From the IMG/VR virus record IMGVR_UViG_3300025610_000072, positions 1-35,736 of that record: a stretch of 35,736 nt of DNA, one strand, 5' to 3'. Positions 1,055 through 35,049 of this stretch are shown one piece after another (position 1 is the first letter of the stretch; each line of letters opens with the position of its first letter). This stretch comes from a virus (Duplodnaviria; Caudoviricetes). The notes under the pieces are model-generated. The model had not been told where the DNA came from and ran no database searches. It saw only the letters and a program-made list of their open reading frames with translations. Made by a program: the position numbers and the translations under genes.

Positions 1055-1884
1055 AGGTAACCGTTTACGAGGTTGGTCCTCGTGACGGTTTACAAGCACT
1101 CAAACAACCCGTTGAAACCTCCACCAAAATAAAACTCATTGATGCGTTGTACAGTGCAGGCTTGAAAAACATTGAAGAAACGAGTTTCGCTCATCCAAAA
1201 CTTGTGCCACAAATGGCTGATGCTAACGAAGTATTTCGTAAGGGTAGCGTTCTCATCATGAACAAGCGTGGTTACGACCGTGCGGTAGCCGCTGGTGCTA
1301 CAAAATTCAGCATTGTGTTTTCACCCTGCGAAACTTTCAACATGAACAACATGGGGAAGACTCGCAGTGAAATTGTACTTATGTACAAGACATTTTTAGA
1401 CAAAGTACCCAAGAAAAATGTGCGAGTGTACATTAGCATGGCGTTTGGTTCGCCTTACAGCGGAATACCTAACATTTCAACACTTATTTCGTGTATTCGT
1501 GATGCGAAAATGTTTGGTCGCACTGTGGTGTTTGCTGACACTGTGGGTGCAGGCACTCGCAAAGAAGTACAACAATTAGCGGAACTTGCGAAAAACGAAC
1601 ATATGAAAGCCGCTTTACATCTTCACCACAGAGGAAATGAAGAACAAGCATTACAGTTGATTCGTGCAGGTTTGTTTAGCGGCATAAAAGAATTTGATTC
1701 AAGTATAGGTGGTCTTGGTGGCTGTCCATTTACCGAAAACAGCGGAGCAAACATCTCTACCGAGTCACTTGTGCGTCATTTAACCGCTTGGGGTTTTAAT
1801 TGCGGAGTAGATAAAGCGGGATTAACCAATGCCTCAAAAATTGCTGAGGAAATAAAACTTAATGAATTAAAGACTGTGATTTAA
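1051..1884 (+). CDS. hmgL: Hydroxymethylglutaryl-CoA lyase (DRE-TIM metallolyase family)
   Basis: YEVGPRDGLQ, SFAHPKLVPQMAD, FADTVG, HLH metal ligands and GGLGGCPF...GANISTE all match HMG-CoA lyase motifs. Confidence 0.9.
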   Translation: MKVTVYEVGPRDGLQALKQPVETSTKIKLIDALYSAGLKNIEETSFAHPKLVPQMADANEVFRKGSVLIMNKRGYDRAVAAGATKFSIVFSPCETFNMNNMGKTRSEIVLMYKTFLDKVPKKNVRVYISMAFGSPYSGIPNISTLISCIRDAKMFGRTVVFADTVGAGTRKEVQQLAELAKNEHMKAALHLHHRGNEEQALQLIRAGLFSGIKEFDSSIGGLGGCPFTENSGANISTESLVRHLTAWGFNCGVDKAGLTNASKIAEEIKLNELKTVI

Positions 1885-3319
1885 GCATACGCCAAGCAAT
1901 GTCTATTGGTTCACCTTTTCGCACCAAACTTTCATTTCCGTTTTCATCGGTTACAATAACATACAATCCCGAATCTAACATTTGTTTTGTATAATTTTCG
2001 TTTCGGTTGATTTTCTTGGGTTCTGCGCTTACGCCTGCATCACCATCGTCAGCCGGAGGGTTTGATTCTTGAAATTGACGATATTGCCTTGCGATAGGAC
2101 TACCTTCGGGATACATTTGCAAAGGGTTCATGTCGGCCATTGGATTTTGACCGGACACTCGTGCTTCTGCCTGTGTTTGGGTCATGGAACGGCCAAGTCC
2201 TTGTTGTTTCATTCTTTCAAAGTCAATTTGTTGTAGGAAATTACCAAAATGGCGACGGTTTGCTTCATTAGCAATAATTCGCCGGTTGCGTTCAATTTGC
2301 GATACTCCAACTGGCACATCTGCTTCATCGTAGTATGCTTGGCGGGCTTCATCATCAGCAATGTCGTAAAAATCATGTGAGTAGCGATTTACGGTATGGG
2401 TTGCTTTTATTGTTTTCCTGTTCCCCGCTTGTGTTGCCGCATCATTCGCAGTGACAAGAGAAAACTTTGGATGTTCGGAAGGCTCATCACGAGCATGTCC
2501 GGCGGCAAAAACAGGGTGATATTGCTCTACAATCCTACCCTTGTCGGTTTTAACCGTGCTTCTTATCGGTTCATCTGTACGAAGAAGAGGAAGCGCAATA
2601 CCGGGAAAGTTTTCGGGATGTGGAACACCTTTTTCATCATTACCACCCGGAATTGATTTTTGATTTCCTCGCTCAATCAATTCGGGATTACGATGAAGCA
2701 TCAAGTCCATGTACGCAAGTGCCAAATCTCGTGGAGTGAGTTTTTCAGCACCTTTTGGCATTTTTTGGTCGGGTTTGTACCTTTGACTGAAACGCATATC
2801 GTGATGTCCTAAATCGTGAATACTCACATGTTTTAGTTTCATTTTATTAGCGTGACTGATGATAAGTTCCTTGTCAAAAGCATCAAAGCCGGGAAGAAAC
2901 GACCACGCTTTGAGCAATCGCCACGACATGTCCATGGCCTCACCCGTAGCGATTTGTGAGCCAGCCTTGGCTTTGTCGGCCATTTGCTGACCACGCTCTT
3001 CCATGCGTTGCTGGCTGGCTTGTTGTGCTTGTGCGTAAGCGGCACCGGCATCAGCCGCTTTTTCACCACGAGATTTTACTTTATCAGTAAATGATTGCTG
3101 ATTGTTGGCTTCGGTGATGTTTTCACCACCAGTAAGTGCATCACCCACCTTACCGCCTGTTTTAGCACCCATAAATCCACCAACAATACCACCGAGGACT
3201 GTGCCAACGCCGGGAACAATGCTTCCAAGTGCCGCACCACGGGCGGCACCGCTGGCCGCACCACCTACAGTTCCAACAGCCTGTCCAATGTCTCCTTTGA
3301 CAAGGACACGCCTGCTCAT
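1859..3319 (-). CDS. Hypothetical protein with N-terminal glycine-zipper segment and two copies of the tag (GEAMDMSWRLLK, GEPIDIAWRMLK)
   Basis: 486-aa ORF starting MSRRVLVKG, with GAALGSIVPGVGTVLGGIVGG. Tags at 2909-2944 and 1880-1915. Confidence 0.8.
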   Translation of the reverse strand: MSRRVLVKGDIGQAVGTVGGAASGAARGAALGSIVPGVGTVLGGIVGGFMGAKTGGKVGDALTGGENITEANNQQSFTDKVKSRGEKAADAGAAYAQAQQASQQRMEERGQQMADKAKAGSQIATGEAMDMSWRLLKAWSFLPGFDAFDKELIISHANKMKLKHVSIHDLGHHDMRFSQRYKPDQKMPKGAEKLTPRDLALAYMDLMLHRNPELIERGNQKSIPGGNDEKGVPHPENFPGIALPLLRTDEPIRSTVKTDKGRIVEQYHPVFAAGHARDEPSEHPKFSLVTANDAATQAGNRKTIKATHTVNRYSHDFYDIADDEARQAYYDEADVPVGVSQIERNRRIIANEANRRHFGNFLQQIDFERMKQQGLGRSMTQTQAEARVSGQNPMADMNPLQMYPEGSPIARQYRQFQESNPPADDGDAGVSAEPKKINRNENYTKQMLDSGLYVIVTDENGNESLVRKGEPIDIAWRMLKSQSLIH

Positions 3320-3343
3320 GCTACACGCATGAGGCGGTATGTC

Positions 3344-3349
3344 TTTAAA
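3344..3349. promoter_or_regulatory. Putative bidirectional archaeal TATA box (TTTAAA)
   Basis: Palindromic hexamer centred about 25-27 nt from both divergent ATGs (3319 on -, 3371 on +). Confidence 0.6.
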
Positions 3350-3370
3350 TTATTTCATCATGGAACGAGC

Positions 3371-4669
3371 ATGGCGAGGGTGCTGATAAGCAAAGCAACT
3401 CTCGCTGATTTTGGTGTACCTCGCCAAGAAGTGGCTGTGCGCCAGCCTATGCCTACTGAACAGCAAATTAGTGATGCAGTGTTAGGGGATGAAAATATGG
3501 GGTTATTGTCACCCGAACAATATGGTATGCGAATGCCTTTACTTGAGCGTGAAAAATTTGAGGATAGCAACAAAAGAACATCCGAAAAACATTATCCCGG
3601 TGAAGCGGGGAAGAAATTTTTACAAGGTATGAATCTTGAAGGTGCACTGGCAAGCGGAATTGCAATGAGAGAATTTCCAGCAATAGGAATGCAAGACCAC
3701 CATGAGCAAATACCATTTTTGCGTGATTATTTTAGTAGGCAAACTACTTTGCCCGAACATGATTGGAGTTACCATACAGAAGGCCCGTATTACGATGAAG
3801 ATGGAAACATTTTGCCGGGTCAAGTACCTCCTGTAAATGCTGTTAAGTTAATGGCAGATAAAGACATTCAACATATAGGACAAGGGAGTGGTTTTGGGTT
3901 AAAACCACTTCCACATAGTCTTGTTAATGAAAAGTGGGAAAAAGAACAAATGCGACCGGGAGAAAGGTTTCCTGCTGAAAATATCGCTTTTGTTGGCCCG
4001 AATATAGAAAATGATATAGCCCGAAATGCCGCCGCTAATGTTTCTTCAAGAGATAGAAGGGGATATGTAGGAATAAGGGGTTTTGGTAGGCCAAGCGATA
4101 GAGCATTTGCAAGAGATGCAAGAAGAGAAGGTAGAGAAGCAGGATTTACATCTGCTATACCACCGGAACGCTTAGTAGGTGCCATGCCTGCATCAAAAGC
4201 CAGCACAGGGGGTAGGGATAAAGAACCGACACGAAATATGATGCCCGTATTAGTTCAAAATAAGTCTTTTGAGCAAAAACTAATGGAAGCGGTAGAAGAG
4301 GGACGAATCCCTGTAACGGAAGTACCGATTATAATGGCTAATCAAAGAAAAAGCCGTAAGTTATTTCCGAATGAAGAAGGGTGGAAATCGTTTGATGCAA
4401 GAGAAAAGGCAAAGAAAGATATGCGACCTTTTGTAGATGAAATAGACCATATGTTTGAGGGAAGCCTACCAGTTTCATGGAAAGATGCACATTTTGGTCT
4501 TGAAAATCCTATTTTGACAGATGCCGAAAAAGAAAATTACATGCGTCAAATAAAGGAACAAATGTATGATGACGAAATTGAAGACATTCATCAGTGGACA
4601 ACTATGGATGATTGGGCTAAAAGAAACCCAGTGCTTCATCCAAAACATAACAAGGTGAGATTTTCATGA
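3371..4669 (+). CDS. Hypothetical protein, probable start MARVLISKA
   Basis: In frame with ORF 3095-4669. ATG 3371 avoids overlap with the opposite gene and carries the shared N-terminal RVL..K tag. Confidence 0.75.
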   Translation: MARVLISKATLADFGVPRQEVAVRQPMPTEQQISDAVLGDENMGLLSPEQYGMRMPLLEREKFEDSNKRTSEKHYPGEAGKKFLQGMNLEGALASGIAMREFPAIGMQDHHEQIPFLRDYFSRQTTLPEHDWSYHTEGPYYDEDGNILPGQVPPVNAVKLMADKDIQHIGQGSGFGLKPLPHSLVNEKWEKEQMRPGERFPAENIAFVGPNIENDIARNAAANVSSRDRRGYVGIRGFGRPSDRAFARDARREGREAGFTSAIPPERLVGAMPASKASTGGRDKEPTRNMMPVLVQNKSFEQKLMEAVEEGRIPVTEVPIIMANQRKSRKLFPNEEGWKSFDAREKAKKDMRPFVDEIDHMFEGSLPVSWKDAHFGLENPILTDAEKENYMRQIKEQMYDDEIEDIHQWTTMDDWAKRNPVLHPKHNKVRFS

Positions 4670-7023
4670 AGCGTGTGTTGGTCAAGAAGGCTTTGCCTCG
4701 GCATTGGTCAAAGGATTTTGATACCACTGAGGACTTACGCAATGTGTTAAGACAGGCTCGTTTGATGTCTCTTGAGGATGCAAAAAACATTGAAAACATA
4801 CCACTAAGACCCGATGTAAGAGATTGGGAATTGAGTCATACTGCTCAAGGGATGAAGAGCATTATTCCGGGTATCCAAGGGGGTAAAATTACAGACCAAG
4901 GATATGTGGACGAAGGTGGAGCATTTACTTATCCGCCTCAATTACAATCGTTTTTACCTATGATAAACCCCGATGCAAGAATGAGTGTCACTATGCCCGA
5001 CATACCCGGCTCAATGGGTAAACCAAGTGGAAGGCCAAGTGTCTTAGTTGGTTCCTTTGAAAAGCCGGAGTTTCACGCTACTCAAAAAGAAGGGCGTGTA
5101 CAAACCGAAGGATTCATGCCGGGTGGTTTTGACCCCTCTCAAGCAGTTTTGCTGACAGAACCCTCTCGTGCTTTTGCAAGACAAGAGGTTCCAATGGCTA
5201 TACAAAACCTTGTAGGAGGAAAAATGAAAGATTATGCTCCCGGTACTTTTGGTTATGATGAACCTGTAGGAAGAGCGATGGAATCATTCAACATTTTACC
5301 ATATAGTACAGAAAATCCATTATCACAGTTTTCGGGGTGGGGTCAACCCCGAACTGTTGATGATGAGTTCCGACTAAGCGAACCAATGGACATCGCCTTC
5401 CAACTCCTCAAAGATGATAACATGGAGGAATACATGGAAGATGCGTTTGATTTAGGTTCCCCATTATTGTCTTATGATGAATTACATGGTAAGCAAAAGC
5501 AAATTGTTGATACTATTGCTGGTGCACCATCTTCTTACTGGAATGACCCCGAAAGCGGTGAGTTAGAAACTGAAAACTACAGCGGTATGTTTCAACAGGA
5601 TGAACACCACCTTTATCCCGATGAAGCGTTTGATGAATACCTCCGTTACATTCAACATTTCCATGACGCATCAGCAAAAATAAGTGCCATGCCACATGAA
5701 GAGCAAATGAAAATTATGTCTCATTATTCTAATCAACATATGTTACCTAATGAGGAGAAAGAAGAGCACCCACTCCATCCTGCAAAAGTAGCGTTGGATA
5801 AAATGGCGGAAGAGTATGAACATTGGAATGTAGAAGACCCTCATGGTGATTTTTACAACCGGTACAATGAGCCAAAGTCGTCACAGGGAGGAGCCTCAAG
5901 GATGGCCGGAGGATTTCACCGTAGCGAACCAATGGATATTGCTATGCGATTGCTAAAGCGTGACAAGATATATGACCCCAATGCTGAAAACAAAGGTCAA
6001 GAAGGAGTTGACTGGCATCCGGGTGAAGAAGGAGTTGATTGGGATTCAGCAGTTTCATCATCACTTCATCCGAGTCATGATTTAACACAAAGGCATCCTT
6101 TTGACTATGATATGCACGAGTACGACCATCATGCTCAAAAATTACTCAACCTTATGCGAAACCGTGATGTTGCACACCTTCAAAATAATGAAAATCCAAT
6201 GACCGAAGATGAGCAATTTGATTTAATGGATGCACAACAAAAATTACAGGCTTCTATTCCTAAAAATACACATTTTCCAAGTATTCAAAATGCCGTTGGA
6301 TATGATAAAGACGGAAACAAGATAAGCACATTTGGAGACGGAAGACCAAAGTTTAACGAAGGTTCTCCACGCTATCAAGAACTAATTGGTGATAGACCAA
6401 CAGTTCCTATTCACACAGAAGGTTCTTTTTACGGAGTTCCATTCAATGAGGAAACAGGCTTTACTCGTAGCGAACCAATGGACATCGCTATGCGGTTGTT
6501 GAAAAATGAACCTGCTGATTACGCAGACACTTATCAGCAAGTCCGAAACAACATTGGTGCCGATGGCGAATATATGACTGACGAAGAATTAAACGCTATT
6601 GACGAGCGTTATTCGGAATTGCACGATGATGAAAAACACCTTGAAGAGTATTATAACTTATTGGAGGCTATTGAACTTGAAAAGAAAAGACGAGCAGAAG
6701 GGTCATTTGATGGTATAGGCCACAACGAAGAAACAGGTTTTACTCGTAGTGAACCAATGAACATCGCCTTCCAACTGCTCAAGGAGCGTGTAAGCCCCGA
6801 AGCCAAGCGGCATAAGTTGGAGTACGACAAGAAGTACGAGTCCAGCCCGGAGCGGGTGAAGTATCGGGAGGAGTTGAACCGTGAACGCCGTCGCCGTGGT
6901 ATCTATGGAAGCCACGACCATAAGGACATTAGCCACACTAAGGGCGGCAAATTGACCCTTGAAGGCGAACATGAAAACAGGGCACGGCACTTCAAAGACA
7001 AGGGAACCCTTCGGGAGTTGTGA
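4666..7023 (+). CDS. Modular (polyprotein-like) protein with four SEPM[DN]IAxxLLK repeats and a C-terminal basic HNH-like module
   Basis: 785 aa with AGGTGA RBS. Repeats at 5377, 5923, 6469 and 6748. C-terminus contains YREELNRERRRRGIYG..HKDISH...EHENRAR. Confidence 0.8.
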   Translation: MKRVLVKKALPRHWSKDFDTTEDLRNVLRQARLMSLEDAKNIENIPLRPDVRDWELSHTAQGMKSIIPGIQGGKITDQGYVDEGGAFTYPPQLQSFLPMINPDARMSVTMPDIPGSMGKPSGRPSVLVGSFEKPEFHATQKEGRVQTEGFMPGGFDPSQAVLLTEPSRAFARQEVPMAIQNLVGGKMKDYAPGTFGYDEPVGRAMESFNILPYSTENPLSQFSGWGQPRTVDDEFRLSEPMDIAFQLLKDDNMEEYMEDAFDLGSPLLSYDELHGKQKQIVDTIAGAPSSYWNDPESGELETENYSGMFQQDEHHLYPDEAFDEYLRYIQHFHDASAKISAMPHEEQMKIMSHYSNQHMLPNEEKEEHPLHPAKVALDKMAEEYEHWNVEDPHGDFYNRYNEPKSSQGGASRMAGGFHRSEPMDIAMRLLKRDKIYDPNAENKGQEGVDWHPGEEGVDWDSAVSSSLHPSHDLTQRHPFDYDMHEYDHHAQKLLNLMRNRDVAHLQNNENPMTEDEQFDLMDAQQKLQASIPKNTHFPSIQNAVGYDKDGNKISTFGDGRPKFNEGSPRYQELIGDRPTVPIHTEGSFYGVPFNEETGFTRSEPMDIAMRLLKNEPADYADTYQQVRNNIGADGEYMTDEELNAIDERYSELHDDEKHLEEYYNLLEAIELEKKRRAEGSFDGIGHNEETGFTRSEPMNIAFQLLKERVSPEAKRHKLEYDKKYESSPERVKYREELNRERRRRGIYGSHDHKDISHTKGGKLTLEGEHENRARHFKDKGTLREL

Positions 7024-7031
7024 GTATTCAC

Positions 7032-7200
7032 TTACCTCACTTTCCTCAAACTTCACTTCACCAAAAATGAGGTAACTGAAATAGTCACTTTACTCATAGG
7101 TCTTACTCTCAATATAATAGTAGTATAGACTATAGTGAATAAATGAAGTAAACTTGGGGGGTCAAAAATAGTGAGTGAAGTTTTGAGGTAAGTGAGGAAA
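7032..7200. repeat. Imperfect ~30-nt inverted repeat (7032-7061 / 7171-7200) around an AT-rich core, with TTWCCTCA units
   Basis: TTACCTCA at 7032 and TTTCCTCA at 7041; reverse-complement copies at 7068, 7184 and 7193. The region is intergenic. Confidence 0.75.
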
Positions 7201-7236: not shown

Positions 7237-7809
7237 GTGAGGACAATGCAACAAAGCAGTAATACTTCGGAAGCCGAAATACGCCTAATGGGGCTTATTC
7301 TTGCCCAATCAGCACTTGTAGGATTAGCAATTGGTCTTTTTGATGCAGATATGTGGTTGAACACAGAAGACCCACTGGTAAATGGTTTCACATACGCCAT
7401 GGCCGCATTTTTTGTACAAGGAATCGCCTATTACTTTTTCAAAATGTTCTTTGAACAAAACATGCAAGAGCGTGTTCGTATTCAAAACATGGAGCGACAG
7501 CGACAGGGACGATACCGCAGTATGCAATATCAATTTGATAATCGTAGAGCGGAAATGGAACTTCGTATGCAAGAAGCACAACTTGAAACTGAATTGCGTT
7601 GGATGGAGCAAAATCCCGGTAAAATGCCTCCTTCTTGGGGTGTACCGGGTGGTTCTCCTTCCCTCGTTGAACAACATGAAAACAAACTTATCAGTAATCC
7701 CCCAAAACATAACGCAGAAATTAAAGCACCAGTGAATCTCGGTGTTAAGGAAGAAGAAGTCCCTTTGAAGAAAGATGGAACACCCGATAAGCGATACATG
7801 AAAGACTGA
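7237..7809 (+). CDS. Membrane protein (2 TM) with coiled coil and C-terminal KKDGTPDKRY motif
   Basis: Two hydrophobic stretches followed by a Q/E/R-rich helix. TTATAT lies about 25 nt upstream; the start could be ATG 7246. Confidence 0.8.
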   Translation: MRTMQQSSNTSEAEIRLMGLILAQSALVGLAIGLFDADMWLNTEDPLVNGFTYAMAAFFVQGIAYYFFKMFFEQNMQERVRIQNMERQRQGRYRSMQYQFDNRRAEMELRMQEAQLETELRWMEQNPGKMPPSWGVPGGSPSLVEQHENKLISNPPKHNAEIKAPVNLGVKEEEVPLKKDGTPDKRYMKD

Positions 7810-7820
7810 GTGGTGTTGTT

Positions 7821-8081
7821 TTGGGCCGTATATTCAAAACCCCTACGGACGATTCTACCGAGGCTACGCTTCGTGCAATGCACACGCAAAATACACTTGA
7901 CAACTATTACGAAAAAGGTGTAGGGTGGCTAAGAACAATTCTTTTTGTGAGTATAGCCATACTTGCTACCAGTTTTTGGGAATTAAATACAGGTGAATCA
8001 GCATGGGAAAATACAGTAGAATGGTTATGGGCAAAAACGCAAAACTTTGCAAATTGGCTTTGGGGGTTTGTAGATGGTTGA
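7821..8081 (+). CDS. Small Trp-rich membrane protein (1 TM)
   Basis: Contains WLRTILFVSIAILATSFW and is translationally coupled to the next gene. Confidence 0.7.
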   Translation: MGRIFKTPTDDSTEATLRAMHTQNTLDNYYEKGVGWLRTILFVSIAILATSFWELNTGESAWENTVEWLWAKTQNFANWLWGFVDG

Positions 8082-8790
8082 GCCAGCAGGTACAGCGGTT
8101 GTTGGTGCGATGGTGTGGGGAAAAGCGGTCATCAACGCATGGAGGCCACGCAAGGTCGGCATTTACGGCGCAGGATTAACAGGTAAAACCACACTTGACC
8201 GTTACATGACTACTCCGGGTGAAATGGAAGAAATACCCGAAGAAGACCGTACAACTCATTTTAAAATGCTTGGAAGGCATGTTTTACCTAAACCATCACG
8301 CAAACGAGTTTCATGGAAAGGGGAAAAGCGTGTAGTGTTTTCTGCTGATGTTGGCGGGCAGGAACGGTTTTGGAATTTGTGGATTGATGACATGGTGGCT
8401 CGTCAAGTAGAATGCGTTGTGTATATGTTTGATGACCGTGCTATCAAAGGAGGTGAAAAAGCCCTGCAACAGATTGCTGGCTTCAAGTACCTTGTAGATG
8501 CAGTTATCAACCGACAATACCGCTATCGCAATTTTAAAAGCCGATGGAAGGGTAAAAAATATGTTCCCAAACTCATTATGTTGGTAGCCAACAAAGCCGA
8601 CCGTTTCTTTGATGAGACCGCTGTTATGCTTTGGCAACAAGACCGTATCGGTGAACATAAAATCTTTGACGCATTCCGTGATGACCTTATTCGCCTGCAA
8701 AAAGCAGGTGTGCCCACTCGTCGTTCCTTTATGGCAACAAGAATTGGATGGAATGTAGAAGCAACAATGATTTCTCTTTTGAGTTCATGA
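8074..8790 (+). CDS. Small GTPase, Ras superfamily, Arf-like
   Basis: G1 GAGLTGKTT, G3 DVGGQERFWNLW, G4 LVANKAD and G5-like MAT. Confidence 0.85.
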   Translation: MVEPAGTAVVGAMVWGKAVINAWRPRKVGIYGAGLTGKTTLDRYMTTPGEMEEIPEEDRTTHFKMLGRHVLPKPSRKRVSWKGEKRVVFSADVGGQERFWNLWIDDMVARQVECVVYMFDDRAIKGGEKALQQIAGFKYLVDAVINRQYRYRNFKSRWKGKKYVPKLIMLVANKADRFFDETAVMLWQQDRIGEHKIFDAFRDDLIRLQKAGVPTRRSFMATRIGWNVEATMISLLSS

Positions 8791-8799
8791 GGTGAGAAA

Positions 8800-8970
8800 G
8801 TGACAAAAACAACAGTAGCATCAGTAGGAAAAACAAGCAACAGTGTAAGGACTGTTATCCCGATGTGGATTGCGGAACTTATGGATTTAGATAAAGGTAC
8901 AAAACTTAAATGGAAACTTGTACGAACAGAAAATGGATATATTGCACAAATAGAAGGTGAAACAAAATGA
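8800..8970 (+). CDS. AbrB/MazE/SpoVT-type DNA-binding protein (56 aa, not in the ORF track)
   Basis: GTG start after GAGGTGA. SNSVRTVIPMWIAELMDLDKGTKLKWKL fits the swapped-hairpin pattern. Confidence 0.75.
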   Translation: MTKTTVASVGKTSNSVRTVIPMWIAELMDLDKGTKLKWKLVRTENGYIAQIEGETK

Positions 8971-9899
8971 TAAACTTTACACGACAACAGCCGCAACAAC
9001 GACTTGGAGATGCTAATGAGGCTCACTTGTATGCACTTGCACAACAAGGAAATGGAGGGCTATCTCACGCCGCTTTGATGGAACAAGCAACAGCGCAACA
9101 ACAAATGCAAAATGTAGCGCAACAAAATAATTTACAAGTTCCAAAAGTAAACTTTTATCCTTCTCGCCACCCCGACCCTCACAAGGCTCGTCGTAAAGAC
9201 ATTAAGCAGGCATATAACTTGCTCATGCCTTCTAAAAGAAGCATTTTTAATCCCGTTAGAACTATTTTTGGTCGTAAATACAGATATGATAAACAAACGC
9301 ATGTTTGTGTGGTGGATGGGTGTGATTGTGCACTGCTCATACAATATGATAATCTTTATGCAAAAATTACTGACGAAGATACAGGAAAAAGTCTTTGGGA
9401 GGTATATTGGCAAAATCCAGTTACAGGGGAAGCAGAAGCGTTTATTGCAAAAGATAAAGTTACTAATGGTCGTAAAATGCGTGGCACTTACTGTCCCGAA
9501 CACCTTCATTTGTACCATTTGCTGTGCAAGTGGGAGGCTGAAGAAGACAAAGTGCGTGAAAACAATCCAAGCCGCCTTCGTGACCATGTGAAGCGTGGTG
9601 TAAGCGTGGTGACTGTTCCTGTGGCCAGCATTGCTAAGAAAGACCCAACGCCACCTATGCTTGAAAAATACGAACCTTTCTTTGATGAATTGATGCGAGA
9701 TTCAAAAAAGACAAACGGAATAAGTCTTGTACATTACAAAAATCCTATTTCACAGCGGAATGATGTCACAATGGTAATTTTTGACCTTCGTATATTTGAA
9801 CATGAATTGGCTATGATAAATCAACCAACGCAAGCATTTCAAAATATGATGGGTCATCAAAACCCTATTGAACAAGAAACACTTGGGGGTAACGAGTGA
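8967..9899 (+). CDS. Hypothetical protein, Gln-rich N-terminus, possible Zn site (CVVDGC...YCPEH)
   Basis: 310-aa ORF with GAAGGTGA RBS and ATGA overlap with the upstream gene. Confidence 0.8.
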   Translation: MINFTRQQPQQRLGDANEAHLYALAQQGNGGLSHAALMEQATAQQQMQNVAQQNNLQVPKVNFYPSRHPDPHKARRKDIKQAYNLLMPSKRSIFNPVRTIFGRKYRYDKQTHVCVVDGCDCALLIQYDNLYAKITDEDTGKSLWEVYWQNPVTGEAEAFIAKDKVTNGRKMRGTYCPEHLHLYHLLCKWEAEEDKVRENNPSRLRDHVKRGVSVVTVPVASIAKKDPTPPMLEKYEPFFDELMRDSKKTNGISLVHYKNPISQRNDVTMVIFDLRIFEHELAMINQPTQAFQNMMGHQNPIEQETLGGNE

Positions 9900-9900
9900 C

Positions 9901-10533
9901 ATGTTGGGACTTGGCGGAAATAATCAAGCACCGATGAATACCGGTGCTTTAAATTTGGGTGTACAAAATCAACAACCATCAATGCAACAAGGATGGGGTG
10001 CTTCTCAACAATCACCGTTTGGACAAGTTGCACAAAATCCATTTATGCAGGGTATGACAGGCGGTGCATCAGCACAGTGGGGTCAACAACCAATAGCCCC
10101 TCCAAGTGAAATAGAAATGCAAATTATGTTACTTCGTGGAATTGTACCTGTAGATAGGTTCATTGCCAGTCAACAAATGGCAACACTGATTCAAATGTTT
10201 AACAATCTTGTCAGTTTTAGTGTGCTTGAGGTCATGAAAAATGCCGTATTCGTAGAAGACGGAGATGGTAACCTCAAAATGGACATTACTCAATTACCAC
10301 CTCATCTACAAACAATGAGTGCAGAAAACATCAAAGCCGAATTTAACACACTACAAAGCAACGCACAGCAGAATATCACTGCGGCTGAAGGAGGGCAACA
10401 ACAAATCGCCTCTTTCTCTCAGCAAAATATGATGAGTGGTGCACTTTCAGCGGCATTGGCTGATGAAGGGATGATGGAAAAAATGGGTAGCGGCGTAGGT
10501 AGCGTTGCACGAGGACTAATGGGGATGAGATGA
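9901..10533 (+). CDS. Hypothetical Gln/Gly/Met-rich protein
   Basis: ATG 9901 is in frame with ORF 9868-10533 and follows the upstream stop directly. Confidence 0.75.
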   Translation: MLGLGGNNQAPMNTGALNLGVQNQQPSMQQGWGASQQSPFGQVAQNPFMQGMTGGASAQWGQQPIAPPSEIEMQIMLLRGIVPVDRFIASQQMATLIQMFNNLVSFSVLEVMKNAVFVEDGDGNLKMDITQLPPHLQTMSAENIKAEFNTLQSNAQQNITAAEGGQQQIASFSQQNMMSGALSAALADEGMMEKMGSGVGSVARGLMGMR

Positions 10534-10781
10534 TGGAAAAAGGAACACAAATGCTTAGCCAGTCTTTTGCGGCTACAACTCTTGAGGTATTGAATCCGAA
10601 TCGCAGTGTTATTGTGGACATGATAATGGTGCAGATACTTGCCGCCATCATTACACTTTCGGCTCTCTTACTTCTCAAAGGAAATAGCCTTGGCTCACAA
10701 AACGCTTCTTACATTCTTGTTGCGTTGTTTGGAAGCGTGTTGTTTTTGAGTGCAGTTTACTCACGAATCACGAGAGGCTGA
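10530..10781 (+). CDS. Small 2-TM membrane protein
   Basis: Two long hydrophobic helices and an ATGA overlap. Confidence 0.75.
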   Translation: MMEKGTQMLSQSFAATTLEVLNPNRSVIVDMIMVQILAAIITLSALLLLKGNSLGSQNASYILVALFGSVLFLSAVYSRITRG

Positions 10782-11758: not shown

Positions 11759-13030
11759 ATGCCTATGGGTCGTGGTTCCGATACTCGCATGTATGGTCCT
11801 CGTAGTGAGTCGGACAAAATGTATTCCTCAGCAAATGAGGATGAAACAAAATACAATCCTGCCGACCCCGAATACAACGAGCAAAAGCGTGAAGAAAAGA
11901 AGCGCAAAATTGAGGAAAAGAAGGCCAAGCGTGCAAAAATTAAGCACATCAAAATCAGTGCTAAGGAAGGGCTAAGTGGAGAAGAATCTCCTACACCTCT
12001 TGATGACGGTAACAAGCGTGATGATGAGCGTGAGTTGAGCCTTCAAGGTGGCCCTGCTGGAAGTCGGGGTACACTTCTTGACCTCGCTACTGGGGCAAAG
12101 AGTGGAACAGGCTCAGCCATGAGTCCCGGCCTTCCAATCGCTATGAGCGAGCCAATGAAGGATGCTTGGAGTACGCTACTTAAGCGTGAAACCCCACGGT
12201 CAATTTCGGGGCGACGGCGGCGTGAGGCACGCCAACAGTTTCGTCCATCCACTGGTCAATTCAAAACACCACCCGGTGGTATGAGCGGTGGGGCTGGTGC
12301 TACGATGCGCCGTTTCAAAGCACAGATGCGTGGTATCAAAAGTGGTAAAAAAACAGGGCTGATGAAGCCTCACCTGTCGGTTGAGATGAGCCACCGTGGT
12401 ATTCAAACCAAGCAACCGCTATCCAAAGACCCGCAAAAGTACACGCAGTATAAAGGACAATCTGAGGCTCGCAAAATCTTAGGTGGCGCACGCACTACAT
12501 TCTCACCACACGCACGATACGGTGCCCGCTCCAACTATGCTGGTCCTACAGGTGGAGGACGACTTAGTGGTTTAATGGCTGGTCAAAGTGGACAAATGGC
12601 CCGTCCTGCTCTTCGTCGTATGCGCCGACCTCGTATGCCTCGTATGCCTCGTATGAGCGCACCACGACCACCTACTCCGCCTATGATGCCACAAATGCAA
12701 TCCAGTGTACCCAGTATGCCTGCCCCGTCATCTACAATGATGATGAGTGAAGAGCGATACCGTAGTGAAATTCTCAAAGCACGCAACAGCCTTCATCGTA
12801 TTGAGTTGCTTAATCTCATGCGACGGCTTATTCAAGCCAAAGAGCGTGAAGCCAAAATTAAGAAAAATTTAACGGCCACTGATGCCGCAGATTTACCCGG
12901 ACATCCTGTGGGAGTTAAGCCGAGTGATGATGAAGACCCCGATGGACCTACAGAAAATCTTGAAACAGATGCTAAAACATTTGGACTTGACCCCGCAGGG
13001 GCAATCATAGGTCGTGGTGGTAGCAGATGA
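11759..13030 (+). CDS. Basic low-complexity protein with internal SEPMKDAWSTLLK tag
   Basis: 423 aa. The tag at 12146-12184 is followed by a strongly Arg/Lys-rich segment. Confidence 0.8.
   Translation: MPMGRGSDTRMYGPRSESDKMYSSANEDETKYNPADPEYNEQKREEKKRKIEEKKAKRAKIKHIKISAKEGLSGEESPTPLDDGNKRDDERELSLQGGPAGSRGTLLDLATGAKSGTGSAMSPGLPIAMSEPMKDAWSTLLKRETPRSISGRRRREARQQFRPSTGQFKTPPGGMSGGAGATMRRFKAQMRGIKSGKKTGLMKPHLSVEMSHRGIQTKQPLSKDPQKYTQYKGQSEARKILGGARTTFSPHARYGARSNYAGPTGGGRLSGLMAGQSGQMARPALRRMRRPRMPRMPRMSAPRPPTPPMMPQMQSSVPSMPAPSSTMMMSEERYRSEILKARNSLHRIELLNLMRRLIQAKEREAKIKKNLTATDAADLPGHPVGVKPSDDEDPDGPTENLETDAKTFGLDPAGAIIGRGGSR
12629..12655 (+). repeat. Tandem repeat (CCTCGTATG)x3 encoding PRM
   Basis: Read directly from the sequence. 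Confidence 0.9.
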
Positions 13031-17466: not shown

Positions 17467-17494
17467 TGTATCCTTTTAATGACTGGGGTTTTTG

Positions 17495-17944
17495 ATGATG
17501 AAAAAAGCAATTGAAGAAGCGTGGAACTTTTTGAAAGCAAATCCATTTATGCGAGATAGAGAGGGTAAGACTATACCCCCTTCTGCGGCACTATACGCAA
17601 TCATGGGTCAAAAGATTATGCAAGAAGCAAGAAATCCCCCCGAAAGAGGAAACATGGGAAGAAGGGCATTGGAAGAAATGGCTCGTAATCAAGTCAATCA
17701 ACGAATGAAAACACCTTCAATGGCCGTGAATACTTACAAAAAACCCTATCCACCTCATTTTGTACCGCATCATGAAGGAAAACCGTATTATCCACCAGCG
17801 CAACAAGGTGATGAAAGGTTTCTGTACGGCGATGAAGAAGAAAAAGCACGCTTTTCAAATGTTCATGCTAACGAACAAGAATACAATTTGTTGAATGATT
17901 ATGACTACTACGAACCTTATATGCAAAGGCTTGAACAACGGTGA
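17495..17944 (+). CDS. Hypothetical protein with N-terminal AIEEAWNFLK tag
   Basis: About 149 aa with the tag at the N-terminus. Confidence 0.7.
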   Translation: MMKKAIEEAWNFLKANPFMRDREGKTIPPSAALYAIMGQKIMQEARNPPERGNMGRRALEEMARNQVNQRMKTPSMAVNTYKKPYPPHFVPHHEGKPYYPPAQQGDERFLYGDEEEKARFSNVHANEQEYNLLNDYDYYEPYMQRLEQR

Positions 17945-18141: not shown

Positions 18142-18341
18142 TGGACTTTGATTATGTCATGGCTTTTCTTAAAGCAAAGCGTGATGCTCCTAACTACCGT
18201 GAGGCCACGGACAAGGAGATGAAGGCAAAGAAAAACTGTGGTACATGCAAAGCATGGGATTCAAAAACAGGGTACTGCAAGTGGTATGATTTTACCTGTA
18301 AGGCAGACCACATTTGTGATGCGTGGGTGAGGAAAGAATGA
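18138..18341 (+). CDS. Small HiPIP-like Cys-motif protein
   Basis: Y...NCGTC..W.....C...........C.AW resembles high-potential Fe-S protein Cys spacing. Confidence 0.6.
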   Translation: MMDFDYVMAFLKAKRDAPNYREATDKEMKAKKNCGTCKAWDSKTGYCKWYDFTCKADHICDAWVRKE

Positions 18342-18853
18342 CACCGATGGATGAAGCATGGCTTGTTCTCAAGTACGAGGGCGGATTTTTCACTCAACCA
18401 CCTGCCATGGAAATGGATGAAGAAAAAATTGCTAATTATGAAAAGGTGAGAGATGAGGGTGGCGATTATCCAGCCTTTTTTGGTGATGAGTATTCCAATG
18501 CCCTGTATCAGCAAGAAGAAATAGCCGCTCTCAACGAGGCAATACGCCAAGAATTACGACGACAAATGGATGCAAAAAGTGAATTCCACTTCTGGGAATT
18601 TGATAGTGGTTTTATGCCCGATGCAAGCCCCATGATGGCAATGCGCCAACACTATTTCCCCAAGGCCGGAAAGCCGATGGTGCCGACAGGTGCCAAAGGG
18701 ACTTTTGTGATGCGGCCTTACAGGGGTCCGGACGATTACAAGCCTGCCCTCCCTATTCGTGCCCCAGTGATTCGCTCAAGGTGGGACCCCGAATATAAAC
18801 TCAATATGAAAAACCGCTTTGACCCAGACGGGGGTAAGTTTATTGGAGAATGA
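18338..18853 (+). CDS. Hypothetical protein with N-terminal PMDEAWLVLK tag
   Basis: ATG 18338 overlaps the upstream stop (ATGA) and is in frame with ORF 18323-18853. Confidence 0.75.
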   Translation: MTPMDEAWLVLKYEGGFFTQPPAMEMDEEKIANYEKVRDEGGDYPAFFGDEYSNALYQQEEIAALNEAIRQELRRQMDAKSEFHFWEFDSGFMPDASPMMAMRQHYFPKAGKPMVPTGAKGTFVMRPYRGPDDYKPALPIRAPVIRSRWDPEYKLNMKNRFDPDGGKFIGE

Positions 18854-22850: not shown

Positions 22851-23195
22851 ATGACCGAAGAAACTTCAAATGCTGAACAATTGATTGGTGTTCTCATCAA
22901 TAAAATGGAGTCTATGGACTCAAATTTAATGCTTTTGAAGGCTGAAAATGATGCTTTGAAGCGTCTTGTCAACAACCCTCAACGACTTCTCCGTAAAATG
23001 GGTCTTGTGTCAGTAAACACACCATTTACCGAAGATTTGCTTAATGACCCATTTCGTGGAGATATGGAACTTGAAAGTGGTACAATCTTAAAAAGTCAAC
23101 CAAAAGTTGGCTCAATGAGTAATGAGGATATTCACAGTATGTCGTGGGAAGAAATTCACGAAATTGCACAAAACGCAAAGGGGGCTACACAATGA
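22851..23195 (+). CDS. Coiled-coil protein sharing its C-terminal motif with the protease/scaffold; putative auxiliary scaffold
   Basis: GAGGTG RBS. The last ~30 aa align without gaps to the C-terminus of ORF 29547-30917. Confidence 0.75.
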   Translation: MTEETSNAEQLIGVLINKMESMDSNLMLLKAENDALKRLVNNPQRLLRKMGLVSVNTPFTEDLLNDPFRGDMELESGTILKSQPKVGSMSNEDIHSMSWEEIHEIAQNAKGATQ

Positions 23196-23785: not shown

Positions 23786-23798
23786 GGGCGGTGATAGC

Positions 23799-29546: not shown

Positions 29547-30917
29547 ATGCTCGCAGTTCAACGACCCAATGACGGTATCACTCTTCTCAAGAGTGGTAAC
29601 GATTTGGTTGTTGCTGGTTACGCATCGGTTGAACTTGTTGACAAGCAAGGCGACCTTATTACTCGTGGTGCTTTGAGTGATGCCTTTGATGGCTTCATGA
29701 AGAGCGACAAATACCGAAATGTGCAACTGGCTCACTCCAACATTCAAGTTGGGGAAGTAATTGACAGTTACATAGATTCTAACGGACGAATGTGGAAATC
29801 CGAATGTGATGACACAGGAATGTTCGTTGTAGTACAACTCCGCAATGATATAGAGAAGGCTCGTGAAGTAGCCGCTGAAATCCGCAAGGGCAACCTTCGT
29901 GGGTTTTCTATTGGAGGACAAGCATTCAAGCGAGTGCGAAAGTCCGACATGGAAAAAGGCGACTACCAAGAGATTTCAAAAATGGAGTTGCATGAGGTGA
30001 CGATTTGTGAAAAGGGTATCAACCCCGAAGCGCAATTCCGAATTTTGAAGGAGGATACCACTATGACAGACGAAAACAGTGATTTGACAGGAATTATGTC
30101 ACGCCTTGAAGCCCGATTGGATGCTATGGAAAAGGGAGAACTACCTCCTGCTCTTAAAGAATCTATGAAAGACAGCAAGGCTGATGAAGAAAAGAAGCCC
30201 GAAAAAGAAGAAGGTGACGAAATGAAAGATGAAAAGAAAGAAAACCCCTTTGCAAAGGGAGAATACAGCGATGTTATTTCCTCTGAGTATCTATCTTGGA
30301 TGGAAAGCACTCTCAAGTCGGCTGGTGTTGATACACTCGCCGCTCGTGACCACTTTGACGCTCTTGAAAAAGCACAACTTGGTGGCTTTGATAACCCCGA
30401 TGCCGTGGACGGTGCTGACTACTTCGGTGGTCAAGTCCGTGGTCGTGGACAAGAAGGAGGTTCACCATCTACTGGTGCAATCAACGCAATCACAGCATCC
30501 GGTGGAAAAACCCCATCCGGTGCTCTCGGACCAGCCCAATTGTCTAAGGGTTACCTCAACGCTGAAAATGTGAGTGAGGCTGACCTTGAAGCCGCTTACG
30601 AAGTGTACAAAGCCGCCGCATCGGAACAAACTTTCCGAAACGACCTTGAAGGACACTTTGCAAACCGTTTCCAACAAGAAATGCAACTTGCAAAGTCCGA
30701 GGCTGAAAAAGCCGCTTTTGATGCACGAGCACCTCTTACGGAAATCGTGAAGTCCATTGAGCAACTTTCGGAGCGTATTGACAATCTTGGTGCTGGAACT
30801 TCTTCCACTATCCAAAAGTCAGTGTCCACTATTGATGTCCCTTCCACGCAAGACCTTGCCAACATGGGTTGGGATGAGGTACACTCGCTTGCACAGCGAA
30901 CCTTGCGAGGGGCTTAA
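29547..30917 (+). CDS. Prohead maturation protease (HK97-type) fused to scaffold domain
   Basis: VAGYAS...DKQGD, catalytic-type His (LAHSN), GFSIGG Ser and LHEVT...NPEA, then an acidic coiled-coil C-half. Directly upstream of the capsid gene. Confidence 0.92.
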   Translation: MLAVQRPNDGITLLKSGNDLVVAGYASVELVDKQGDLITRGALSDAFDGFMKSDKYRNVQLAHSNIQVGEVIDSYIDSNGRMWKSECDDTGMFVVVQLRNDIEKAREVAAEIRKGNLRGFSIGGQAFKRVRKSDMEKGDYQEISKMELHEVTICEKGINPEAQFRILKEDTTMTDENSDLTGIMSRLEARLDAMEKGELPPALKESMKDSKADEEKKPEKEEGDEMKDEKKENPFAKGEYSDVISSEYLSWMESTLKSAGVDTLAARDHFDALEKAQLGGFDNPDAVDGADYFGGQVRGRGQEGGSPSTGAINAITASGGKTPSGALGPAQLSKGYLNAENVSEADLEAAYEVYKAAASEQTFRNDLEGHFANRFQQEMQLAKSEAEKAAFDARAPLTEIVKSIEQLSERIDNLGAGTSSTIQKSVSTIDVPSTQDLANMGWDEVHSLAQRTLRGA

Positions 30918-30945: not shown

Positions 30946-32046
30946 ATGGCACGAGATTACATTAGAAACATTACTGATATGGAACGATACTACTATGGCG
31001 CAGGAAACGCTATGGGTTACTCCTACTCCGGTAGCGAGTTGCTCAAGGCTGATGCACCTATGCTATCAACCACTGCTGGTACATACCAAGCAATCTACGG
31101 ACGCAAAGTTTGGAGTCAGTTGAACCAAGAGTTCAACGCCTTCTCTATTCTACCAAAGCGACCATGGGAGCGCAGTGGATGGCGAGTTATCACCGAGCGT
31201 CCTTCCTTCTCTGTTGGTGGCGGTGTTGCAGAAAACGCAACTCTTCCCGACACCACCAAACCTACCTTCCAACACATTGCCGCAAAGCCAAAGACTGTTG
31301 TTCACACCTTTGACATGAGCGAAACCGCAATGTTCCTTTCCGACAAAGATGACGGACTTGGCGACATTCGTGCAATCCTTAAGGAAGAAATGGGTAAGCA
31401 CCACGCAGAACACATCAACAAGATGCTCACTGTTGACAAGGCTACTGTTGCCGGAAACGACTTTGAATCCCTTGACCGTGTTACTACTGGGGCTTCCGCA
31501 GGTTCCGCAGAAGACATGTACTCCATTGACCGAAGTGCAAACTCTTGGTCACTTGCAGAACATGATGAAAACGGCGGTACTGACCGAAACCTTTCACTTG
31601 ACCATTTGGACACTTTGTTCCAAAAGACATGGACTCGTGGTGGAAACCCAAAGGTCATCCTCACTGGATACGACACTTTGATGCGTCTTCAACAACTTCT
31701 ACAATCCCAACAACGATTTATGGAAGAGAAGCGTGTTACCCCTACCTACAACGGTGTTAAGGGTGTTCCCGGTCTTGAAGCAGGATTCATTGTTGCAACA
31801 TACAATGGTGTCCCAATCATCCCATCTAAGGATGTGCAACCCGACACCTTGAGCCGTATGTATTTCCTTGACACTGATTACTTGTACTTTAGTACAGCAA
31901 TTCCAACCCAATACTTTGAGAGCGGTATTGAAACTGGCGACCCATTCGCCATCAACCGCCTCGGACAAGAAGGAATGTATCGTACTATGGGTGAACTATG
32001 GACGACTTTCTTCGGCGGTCACGGCTCTATCCGTGACCTCAAGTGA
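30946..32046 (+). CDS. Major capsid protein (HK97 fold)
   Basis: Position after the protease, 366 aa, GGVAEN, YNGVPIIPS and MYFLDTDYL, with a strong RBS. Confidence 0.92.
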   Translation: MARDYIRNITDMERYYYGAGNAMGYSYSGSELLKADAPMLSTTAGTYQAIYGRKVWSQLNQEFNAFSILPKRPWERSGWRVITERPSFSVGGGVAENATLPDTTKPTFQHIAAKPKTVVHTFDMSETAMFLSDKDDGLGDIRAILKEEMGKHHAEHINKMLTVDKATVAGNDFESLDRVTTGASAGSAEDMYSIDRSANSWSLAEHDENGGTDRNLSLDHLDTLFQKTWTRGGNPKVILTGYDTLMRLQQLLQSQQRFMEEKRVTPTYNGVKGVPGLEAGFIVATYNGVPIIPSKDVQPDTLSRMYFLDTDYLYFSTAIPTQYFESGIETGDPFAINRLGQEGMYRTMGELWTTFFGGHGSIRDLK

Positions 32047-33451: not shown

Positions 33452-33751
33452 ATGGGTTTTGATGTTAGAAGCATTGATTTGAGCGACATTGTTCGTGCTG
33501 GCAAGCAAGACCGCAAGGCTGATTATCAGTACGGTGGTGATGTGGTTTCAAAGCCCGAAAAGCCACTTGAAGGTGTTACTCGTTCCCAACGAAACCGCAA
33601 TCAAGAAATAGGTGACATCCTTAACATTGGTTCGGGCACTCGTTGTACGCACTGCGGATTCCTTCATTTCATGTGGAGGGCAACCTGTGGTGCTTGTGAA
33701 AAGCCTATGGAATACAACTTAGGAAAGCGTGACGAAAAGAAGAGGTTATGA
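33452..33751 (+). CDS. Zinc-ribbon protein
   Basis: CTHC...CGAC with a GAGGTGA RBS. Confidence 0.75.
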   Translation: MGFDVRSIDLSDIVRAGKQDRKADYQYGGDVVSKPEKPLEGVTRSQRNRNQEIGDILNIGSGTRCTHCGFLHFMWRATCGACEKPMEYNLGKRDEKKRL

Positions 33752-35049
33752 ATATGAAAGTTCTAATTAAAGCAATGCGACCACACCGACAAAAAGTTCT
33801 TACAGAAGATGGCGAAGAAATGCGCCTTCAACAGTGGGCTAACAAAGCGGCCAGTTCTGCACTTCGTGGTGCAGGTGAGGTTGCGAGCGGAGAACAATTT
33901 ACTCAAGCCCGTGACGCTCTCATGCGTGAGGCTGTAGCCAATCCCGATGAGCATGGACTCAAGTTCATGGGCGAGCGTGTGCCCTTTGAAGGTCAAACCT
34001 TGGAAGAGTCGCTGAGCGAACCCGATGTAGAGGGCGAGCGAGCAATAATTGACAATCAGTTCAATCAAGACCCTATGAACGACCCCGACTTCAAAGAAGA
34101 CATGACTGAGGATGAATCATTTGAGTTGGCTGAAAAACTTGACCGTAAAATGCCTAACATCTTTGATGGGCAGGGCAAACTTCGCCAAACGCTTCCGCAA
34201 GGCGGTAAAATGAATGAAAACGACATGCACGATGAAGCACTGGCTGATTGGGAAGCCCGTCAAAGCGACATTGACTTTTCTCGTGAGCAAGGACATACCG
34301 AAGGATTTGAAGGTAAGCCGTATCATGATATGGAACAAGAAGAGTTGGATGCTGACAAAAAGCGTTTTTATGGTATGTACCCTCATTTGAAACCTCAAGA
34401 AGAAGGTGGTTTTGACCCCGATGCTGAGGCTGAACACCTCCGTCGCATCATGAACTCTCGTGATGTTGCTATGCGTGATGCTTTAAGTCTATTGAAAAAT
34501 CTGCAATTTCCTGCTGATGCTGGTAATAGACGGGAGTTCCAACGAATGCCGGGTGAAAAACACGGCCCTAATGACAAGTTTTTCCGATATGGTGAAAATC
34601 CGTATGTACCAAAAGGACACGGTGAGAAACCAATGAGGGCAGAAAGACCGCATCCCTACAGTCAATTGGGGGCTAATGTAATGGAGGATTACCAACTCAT
34701 GCAAGAAGAACCCGAAGACAACCAACTTCTTACCCCCGATGAATTAGCATTTGCTCAATCCATTGCTGAAAATGACGGGCAAATGCCTCCTGCGGCAAGA
34801 ATGCCAGCACCTACACTACGACAAGGAATGAATCAGTATAATCCACCCATTAAGACCTCCCGCCAAGTTCCTATGCGTGATGCTTGGAGCGTGTTAAAAA
34901 ATGATTTTTTTAATCCACCGGAAGTTCCGTGTGCTAAATGTGGAAGGCCGACTGAACCAATGATGTATTACGGTTCTAATCAAATGGGGCCACAGCACAA
35001 CACGCTTTGCGAAAAATGTGAAGACATCCCAATGATGGAAGACCAGTGA
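33748..35049 (+). CDS. Modular acidic protein with N-terminal KVLIK tag, two internal tags and C-terminal Zn finger
   Basis: SRDVAMRDALSLLK (34456-34497), SRQVPMRDAWSVLK (34858-34899) and CAKC...CEKC. Confidence 0.8.
   Translation: MNMKVLIKAMRPHRQKVLTEDGEEMRLQQWANKAASSALRGAGEVASGEQFTQARDALMREAVANPDEHGLKFMGERVPFEGQTLEESLSEPDVEGERAIIDNQFNQDPMNDPDFKEDMTEDESFELAEKLDRKMPNIFDGQGKLRQTLPQGGKMNENDMHDEALADWEARQSDIDFSREQGHTEGFEGKPYHDMEQEELDADKKRFYGMYPHLKPQEEGGFDPDAEAEHLRRIMNSRDVAMRDALSLLKNLQFPADAGNRREFQRMPGEKHGPNDKFFRYGENPYVPKGHGEKPMRAERPHPYSQLGANVMEDYQLMQEEPEDNQLLTPDELAFAQSIAENDGQMPPAARMPAPTLRQGMNQYNPPIKTSRQVPMRDAWSVLKNDFFNPPEVPCAKCGRPTEPMMYYGSNQMGPQHNTLCEKCEDIPMMEDQ

Follow-up and report, generated by a model that had tools for sequence, protein, structure and literature searches.

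Modules of a magrovirus late polyprotein gene are exchanged at a repeated in-frame tag that may also direct prohead entry and cleavage after lysine

The IMG/VR virus record IMGVR_UViG_3300025610_000072 (hereafter "the window", the whole stretch of 35,736 nucleotides analysed) contains an open reading frame (ORF) of 785 residues at 4666..7023. In this ORF, five unrelated modules are parted by four copies of a 12-residue tag, [GS]EPM[DN]IAxxLLK, encoded by 36 nucleotides. On the basis of its genes, the window represents the arm of a magrovirus-type virus that carries the virion genes. In related viruses, modules are gained, lost, reordered and shared at the tags. Altogether, we consider it probable, though by no means assured, that the ORF is a cassette array within a magrovirus late gene, and that its tags direct entry into the prohead and cleavage after their terminal lysine (Lys).

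The ORF and all its parts lie on the plus strand. The product starts with a short leader of the 'VLVK' type (4666..4689), which represents a second leader class with a hydrophobic-hydrophobic-Lys end. It is followed by module 1 (4690..5376), tag 1 (5377..5412, SEPMDIAFQLLK), module 2 (5413..5922), tag 2 (5923..5958, SEPMDIAMRLLK), module 3 (5959..6468), tag 3 (6469..6504), module 4 (6505..6747), tag 4 (6748..6783, SEPMNIAFQLLK) and module 5 (6784..7023). Tags 2 and 3 contain the left and right ends of a module 3 match described below. The tags end at residues 249, 431, 613 and 706, thus delimiting segments of 249, 182, 182, 93 and 79 residues. The strict motif is found eight times in the six frames of the window, compared with a mean of 0.34 (maximum 2) in 200 shuffles, and all eight matches are on the plus strand, in long ORFs.

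The original prediction, made from the nucleotide sequence, proposed that the segments were dissimilar, that copies 3 and 4 shared an extended tag of high nucleotide similarity, and that codons became richer in terminal G or C past the last tag. The three proposals held. Clustering assigned the five segments to five different families. Copies 3 and 4 have an NEETGFTR extension in common and are 89% identical over 45 nucleotides (6444-6488 versus 6723-6767); the similarity of tag DNA copies to copy 1 is 66-77% over 47 nucleotides. The G+C content at third codon positions (GC3) is 0.36, 0.36, 0.27 and 0.37 in modules 1 to 4, and 0.68 in module 5. Codons ending in G or C make up 54 of 79 after the last tag versus 238 of 706 before it (p = 5e-9), and the shift begins at 6784. 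A single repeat-domain fold for the whole ORF was not seen, and module 2 is predicted to fold as a domain of its own. An AlphaFold model of the whole ORF from the single sequence was uninformative, with a predicted local distance difference test score (pLDDT) of 41.

Comparison of orthologous loci had been set beforehand as a test of the proposal that tag DNA serves as an anchor for exchange, and the proposal was supported: the orthologues are not collinear, and their module content varies with breakpoints at the tag. None of the 13 relatives found to carry module 1 has the module set of the window. They contain 0-4 internal modules, and 12 of the 13 terminate in module 5; four relatives whose module 1 is 97% identical differ from the window in their other modules. 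Order can also change, as P0002 has module 4 (94% identity) ahead of module 2 (97%), the opposite of the arrangement in the window. Module 2 is present in 21 other proteins, including one position directly behind an N-terminal tag, and in L037 it lies inside a different gene; these relatives were recovered by searches other than the viral-contig scan, which did not detect them.

A transfer between distant viruses is documented by module 3. Of the 486 nucleotides at 5959-6444, 484 are identical in the distant virus L051, while the flanks are 71-78% alike and the L051 relative of module 1 is 38% identical. The match begins within the final codons of tag 2 and stops in the first half of tag 3. 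The tags of L051 itself belong to a variant one residue longer.

The pattern extends to the complete set of tagged loci (L001-L195 plus the window). In this set, 148 ORFs with an internal tag yielded 378 modules, which fall into 144 families (89 of them singletons); 93 architectures were distinguished in 143 ORFs, and 24 of the 25 non-singleton internal families occur in at least two neighbour contexts. For nucleotide matches of at least 85% identity, 52 of 75 internal ends were located at tags (7.0 expected). The proportions were 26 of 37 at 92% identity (3.8 expected) and 129 of 238 at 75% (22.2 expected). Where pairs of loci have just one flank in common, the codon directly past the tag Lys marks a fall in identity from 0.90 to 0.35, and on the other side identity drops to 0.28 at the codon preceding the tag; as the pair classes were defined by flank identity, only the sharpness of the drop is informative.

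The tag is not confined to the interior of polyproteins. Among 436 tags, 178 end within the first 40 residues, that is, in the position of an N-terminal leader. In five genomes, 49 of 50 tag-profile hits map to the virion-gene arm; the arms were read by eye, five of the hits are weak look-alikes, and a shuffle of each genome gave one hit in total. The strict tag pattern was found in 118 stretches in viral contigs and in four stretches among 185,579 prokaryote genomes. Host mimicry by the tag was considered and discarded: two of the four prokaryote stretches are magrovirus-like contigs in bacterial bins, one matches at the tag only, and one lies in a 19-codon frame. Magrovirus-like contigs L197 and L198 are located inside Maricaulis and Parvibaculum metagenome-assembled genomes, and the same bins contain magrovirus-type capsid genes.

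Module 5 provides information on which part of the tag matters. A site of the hydrophobic-hydrophobic-Lys type precedes 78 of 80 copies of this module, compared with 11% at random. The site belongs to a helical tag in 39 copies and to another leader in 39, so that the 'VLVK'-type leader and the helical tag are interchangeable ahead of module 5. Because module 5 stands behind either element equally, the Lys end is what they have in common. Furthermore, 3 of the 436 tags have proline directly after the Lys, versus 7.1% for other Lys residues, a scarcity that would be expected of a cut site.

Lys sites of the same kind are found in the head genes of the window. The major capsid protein (MCP; 30946..32046, plus strand) has a conserved ELLK/A sequence at K34, a predicted maturation site, and the Lys is present in 61 of 61 sequences. 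The predicted processing enzyme is an HK97-type (S78) prohead protease (29547..30917, plus strand) with a protease domain at 29547-30080 and a scaffold-like tail, in which H63 and S121 are invariant and E150 is nearly so. Conserved Lys sites occur at K15, K402 and K424; K15 is conserved in 68 of 68 sequences and K424 in 67 of 68. A small scaffold-like ORF located after the portal gene (22851..23195, plus strand) carries an invariant Lys, K81 (36 of 36), and its C-terminus resembles that of the protease: both have a helix motif W-[DE]-E-[IV]-H. This common motif makes the ORF a candidate for a separate scaffolding protein. In the halovirus HVTV-1, the aligned position of the capsid protein holds a Lys, and so do the two ends of the protease. 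Among distant proteases, 95 of 145 have a Lys-type site just ahead of the protease domain (29% in the control). In the available text of PMC10275583, the HK97 capsid protein is cut at K103/S104. For HFTV1, residues 1-100 of the MCP are missing. In the literature searched, no experimental Lys cleavage was found for haloviruses or Herelleviridae. A complex prediction between the protease domain and a 31-residue tag peptide gave a score of 0.02, which carries no weight either way. From the Lys site common to the capsid protein and the protease, we infer that the tag Lys may be a prohead-protease cut site that releases the modules.

The modules themselves are heterogeneous. Module 1 is one of 21 non-redundant sequences that make up a divergent family, retrieved by iterative hidden Markov model searches with the tags masked. 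An invariant Glu-Gly pair (E140-G141) is kept despite identities of about 20-30%, and a Gln two residues before the Glu and an N-terminal Arg are frequent. As a lead only, the pattern recalls the R/H...S/T/Y...Q/E-x-E core of ADP-ribosyltransferases. Comparison of the module 1 profile with scabin-like domains gave 0.8%, below an unrelated control, and the positive controls failed too. No match to module 1 was found in Pfam, PHROGs, PDB, Atlas or phage records. In P0173-P0176, module 1 bears about 430 extra N-terminal residues; P0175 begins like the frame upstream of the ORF in the window (3311-4669), which suggests a fusion of genes 3311-4669 and 4666-7023.

Module 2 is acidic and is found in many other protein contexts. 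It consists of a compact, predicted all-helical domain (pLDDT 78, predicted template modelling score 0.73) with 32 invariant columns. The domain leads into a linker of low confidence, and the tag helix comes last. Foldseek searches of the model against PDB and BFVD returned no match at E<=0.001, and VIA-align gave a best Z of 4.7, with no clear fold match, which does not imply a new fold. Module 4, also acidic, occurs behind other modules in L114, P0002 and P0178. A match in L115 was dropped as a chance coiled-coil likeness.

Module 5 is basic, belongs to PHROG 6437 and is the fixed terminal module. Residues D48, H51, N65 and H69, whose pattern resembles the D-x-x-H...N...H core of HNH nucleases, are invariant in 22 sequences. 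The nearest Atlas cluster with a family assignment contains HNH_3 in 40% of its members (score 0.93), and no direct Pfam match was obtained. A relative in cyanophage S-CBS2 stands alone, without the tag. Module 5, with its high GC3, is not a newly gained cassette; it forms the constant terminus of the array. In 69 of 78 loci, it has a higher GC3 than the GTPase gene next to it. Silent-site identity with the four closest relatives is 0.84-0.90 in module 5 versus 0.56-0.64 in the GTPase gene, and the means over the 78 loci are 0.49 and 0.46, respectively. The high GC3 is thus partly a family trait and partly the mark of a recently shared allele. PDB sequence searches with the MCP, the protease and module 5 gave no match.

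Pfam searches over representatives of the 144 module families gave only DUF5872, DUF6321 and one zinc finger above the cut-off. Matches below the cut-off to SAM lyase/DUF3293, HD and GNAT were noted in L002 (9228-9923), L027 (3914-4369), L053 (5712-6086) and L031 (3165-3659), and the modules concerned may be regarded as candidate counter-defence enzymes.

The mechanism that we propose has four steps. Unrelated modules are gained, lost, reordered and traded between viruses at the 36-nucleotide in-frame tag, likely by homology-driven crossing-over. The tag peptide would target the polyprotein to the prohead; there, the HK97-type protease would cut after the tag Lys and free each module. Some of the freed modules would then be ejected into the host and act as host-takeover or counter-defence factors, in the manner of T4 IPI and Alt. 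Our confidence differs among the parts. Cleavage after Lys by the prohead protease is the better supported of the protein steps and, judging from the conserved sites, probably occurs; head targeting by a helix of the form M..A[WFM]..L appears somewhat more plausible than its absence; ejection of at least some modules, proposed by analogy with IPI and Alt, is a tentative suggestion. Equally speculative, and held a shade more loosely, is the view that one 36-nucleotide sequence could work as a dual code, being at once exchange point, head-targeting signal and cut site in a system that would deliver a shuffled set of effectors into marine archaea at infection. With this triple role, a captured gene would in a single step come to be in frame, packaged, released and tradable.

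Several observations weigh against this proposal. The scarcity of proline after the tag Lys would equally be expected if the helix ran on past this residue. The residue that follows the tag Lys is varied (A in 114, E in 71, S in 41 and R in 37 of 436 tags); the capsid and protease sites, by contrast, mostly have Ser, Ala or Gly in this position. In HVTV-1, 40 kb of virion genes showed no match to the helical portion of the tag, and some modules are joined without a helical tag. None of the modules of ORF 4666-7023 has a curated family match that would back a function. The loci compared are phylogenetically non-independent, so that the counts given above overstate the number of events. Lastly, no Rad51-family match was obtained in the five genomes; a RadA-like ATPase, found by profile methods, is reported for magroviruses in the available text of PMC5434244.

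One alternative is that the tag is a docking helix only, and that the polyprotein remains whole, held at several points by a partner in the head or the host; exchange at tags would still be real. The prediction that the tag is helical agrees with this idea, as does the variety of residues after the tag Lys. There is also a precedent, as the N4 virion RNA polymerase is packaged unprocessed according to the available text of PMC5512222. Docking does not account, however, for the 39 of 80 loci in which a non-helical leader replaces the tag before module 5 and only the Lys end is in common. Nor does it account for the start of module homology at the residue following the Lys, or for the presence of the same Lys motif at predicted maturation sites. 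We consider a docking-only role improbable.

A slightly less probable alternative admits packaging and cleavage and holds that the pieces are core filler or DNA-condensing material, degraded or kept in the head, so that shuffling would be tolerated drift with no arms race. The charge of the modules is compatible with such a role, as modules 2-4 are strongly acidic and module 5 is basic. The near absence of curated enzyme matches in the 144 families points in the same direction, and T4 offers a parallel in IPII and IPIII, which are dispensable according to the available text of PMC9026906. Against mere filling stand the compact predicted domain of module 2 with its invariant columns, the retention of Glu-Gly in the divergent module 1 family, and the near-identical transfer of a module between distant viruses.

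It is also conceivable that internal tags are fossil gene starts, and that the tag Met initiates nested proteins without proteolysis. The use of the tag as an N-terminal leader on many genes would fit, and Shine-Dalgarno (SD)-like words precede internal tag Mets in 47 of 219 cases, compared with 368 of 3328 for other Mets and 33 of 113 for the starts of tagged genes. The SD-word excess is, however, partly due to Gly-Glu codons, and none of the four tags of ORF 4666-7023 has an SD-like word. In addition, the Met is swapped for Ile or Phe in some tags, and restarts would leave a module joined to those downstream. This alternative is very unlikely.

The manner in which the DNA moves bears on a fourth alternative, in which a recombinase of the virus or the host that has escaped recognition would act site-specifically on the tag DNA, much as in integrons. 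Tag codons are biased, and the tag DNA (for instance, 6469-6492 in the window) contains an imperfect inverted repeat of 5 bp around 11 nucleotides, with 3.50 of 5 pairs formed versus 2.37 in synonymous recodings. Yet the codon bias is no stronger than codon persistence in the MCP or the protease, which indicates common descent rather than selection on the DNA. Although preferred codons are in common, silent sites vary, and 162 of 165 tags are distinct in DNA. The stem lacks covariation among the 165 tags, and tag DNA folds no better than shuffles (hairpin z-scores, -1.35 to 0.90). The two crossovers of L051 lie at opposite ends of the tag, and no match to a tyrosine integrase or a reverse transcriptase was detected in any of the five related genomes. 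Site-specific recombination thus seems even less likely than internal initiation. Silent-site variation, together with the lack of integrase or reverse transcriptase matches, makes homology-driven crossing-over the likely route. As far as can be judged from the sequences, crossing-over between co-infecting genomes would very probably occur anywhere in the tag, without a dedicated recombinase, and module 5, given its silent-site identity with the closest relatives, can serve as a putative right-hand homology arm. Other tag-bearing viruses are indeed present in the same samples, as seen in loose contig ends.

The module arrangement of the window is a real haplotype. In runs X1, X7, X10 and X17, which may be the source samples of the record, single unbroken contigs of flat depth cross the tags without differences, and a contig from a 2014 marine run (X14) bridges tag 2. 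No clean deletion form of the array was detected in the contig-level runs, with the caveat that contigs drop rare variants. RNA runs X18 and X19 cover parts of the array, and transcription is not thereby demonstrated. The probability that the mosaics arose as chimeras when the repeated tag was assembled is negligible: contigs are indeed broken at tags where more than one virus is present and many IMG/VR contigs end near the ORF, yet the contigs just described are continuous and the left junction of L051 has only about 9 nucleotides in common with the window. On their shorter side, the contig joints listed span 20-57 letters, for the most part no more than a tag, and they likely stem from co-occurring viruses.

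Other genes of the window carry the tag. A second tagged polyprotein is encoded on the minus strand at 1859..3319 (tags at about 2909-2944 and 1880-1915), and its first two modules vary among relatives. A third lies on the plus strand at 33748..35049, with tags ending at 34497 and 34899 and small, Cys-rich terminal modules that vary. The original prediction held that each of these ORFs used a tag variant of its own. The variants are there; they are not private to each ORF, as module 2 moves between genes and the NEETGFTR extension recurs in other viruses. A conserved two-part gene (11759..13030, plus strand) has an internal tag at 12146-12184, where about 17 different module families are inserted in relatives; the gene, fixed in other respects, thus offers a second site for cassettes. 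Motif or profile matches also indicate the tag as N-terminal leader of a small ORF at 18323..18853 (plus strand) and of further ORFs at 384-860 and, more weakly, 17492-17944.

Assignment of the virus relies on its gene content and on its relatives. The window, a 33% complete fragment, encodes a terminase, a portal, a 1936-residue protein with a ligase domain, the S78 prohead protease and the MCP. Five related records of 86-108 kb, whose MCPs are 77-96% identical to that of the window, all contain PolB and a chaperonin, in agreement with the magrovirus pattern of a genome of about 65-110 kb with both genes. The HK97-type structural block is related to that of haloviruses and has ligase and nuclease genes inserted. 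Magroviruses are so described in the available text of PMC5434244, and the window fits that description. HVTV-1 is the best cultured protease match by E-value among the matches listed. The virus likely infects archaea, and Poseidoniales would be the host if the literature assignment of magroviruses is followed. Runs containing window 4500-7200 are mostly labelled freshwater metagenome, with one marine, which is unexpected for a marine-archaeal virus; the freshwater-labelled runs are possibly estuarine samples.

Additional observations concern the surroundings of the array. A 17-nucleotide inverted repeat (88%) is found at 7027-7080, right past the stop codon, where it opens an intergenic stretch. 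Directly after module 5 comes a conserved block (7237-10781) with a small-GTPase-like ORF (8074-8790) and membrane proteins, which is present in 78 of 80 loci. An HMG-CoA-lyase-like gene (PF00682; 1051-1884) lies amid tagged genes, and its place differs among relatives. The ligase-bearing protein (23697-29507) ranges from about 1245 to 1978 residues across the five relatives; at the equivalent place, HVTV-1 has large, variable head-region genes, one of them annotated as a zeta toxin.

If correct, our proposal would account for the hypervariable region, largely without annotation, with which the late arm begins in an abundant group of ocean archaeal viruses. The tag gives a rule to divide these ORFs into real units, and points to a catalogue of candidate host-takeover and counter-defence proteins directed at Poseidoniales, archaea from which no virus has been cultured. 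If the dual-code view is also true, a pool of well over 100 module families would circulate across the virus group, with the possibly ADP-ribosyltransferase-like module 1 among the effectors. A practical consequence is that a cut after Lys would be masked in trypsin-based proteomics. The available texts on magroviruses (PMC5434244, PMC11706807, PMC10160649 and PMC8651126), supplements aside, mention no such tag or polyprotein.

Known systems share some of these traits. In the available texts of PMC9026906 and PMC9958956, the capsid targeting sequence (CTS) of T4 internal proteins (IP) I-III and Alt, processed by gp21, is a short leader common to unrelated, variable small proteins. In T4, targeting residues at the start and processing residues at the end are separable (PMC9026906, in the text available). 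The magrovirus tag is likewise a short leader on unrelated proteins; it ends in a predicted prohead-protease site, and the variable locus adjoins conserved head genes. Unlike the CTS, the tag ends in Lys rather than Glu, is repeated inside ORFs to form polyproteins and has DNA that doubles as an exchange point; the setting is an archaeal virus with an HK97-type protease. No sequence likeness to the T4 CTS, IP or gp21, with its Glu-specific cut, was found. Because the tag ends in Lys and the protease is S78/XkdF-like, the magrovirus system would work like that of T4 without being the same system, and by analogy the tag is likely a CTS-like signal repeated inside polyproteins.

Maturation of the HK97 gp4 type (Peptidase_S78) resembles the predicted processing in protease family, conserved His/Ser/Glu residues and Lys cut site (PMC10275583), and HVTV-1, the nearest cultured relative, has Lys sites at equivalent places in capsid protein and protease. 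A repeated cargo tag is not described for HK97 in the available text of PMC10275583 and was not detected in the virion genes of HVTV-1, over 40 kb. Phages and conjugative elements encode polyvalent proteins, which are, like the magrovirus product, large mosaics that combine several disparate domains in a single chain, and some are packaged and processed (PMC5512222, in the text available). They reportedly use embedded peptidases, in place of the repeated tag and separate protease proposed here. Their hallmark domains (MPTase, LPD, ART-PolyVal and others) gave no Pfam match at E<=0.01 among the 144 representatives, although divergent members could escape detection.

Integron cassette arrays are ordered and undergo gain, loss and reordering at repeated DNA sites. 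The magrovirus array is ordered too, and changes in the same ways. No integrase match was obtained in the five genomes, and no attC-type hairpin was found at the tags. Unlike integron sites, those of magroviruses are in-frame coding sequences with silent variation and without a conserved hairpin. Magroviruses would thus achieve an integron-like shuffling of genes without an integrase, by using a coding signal as homology arm.

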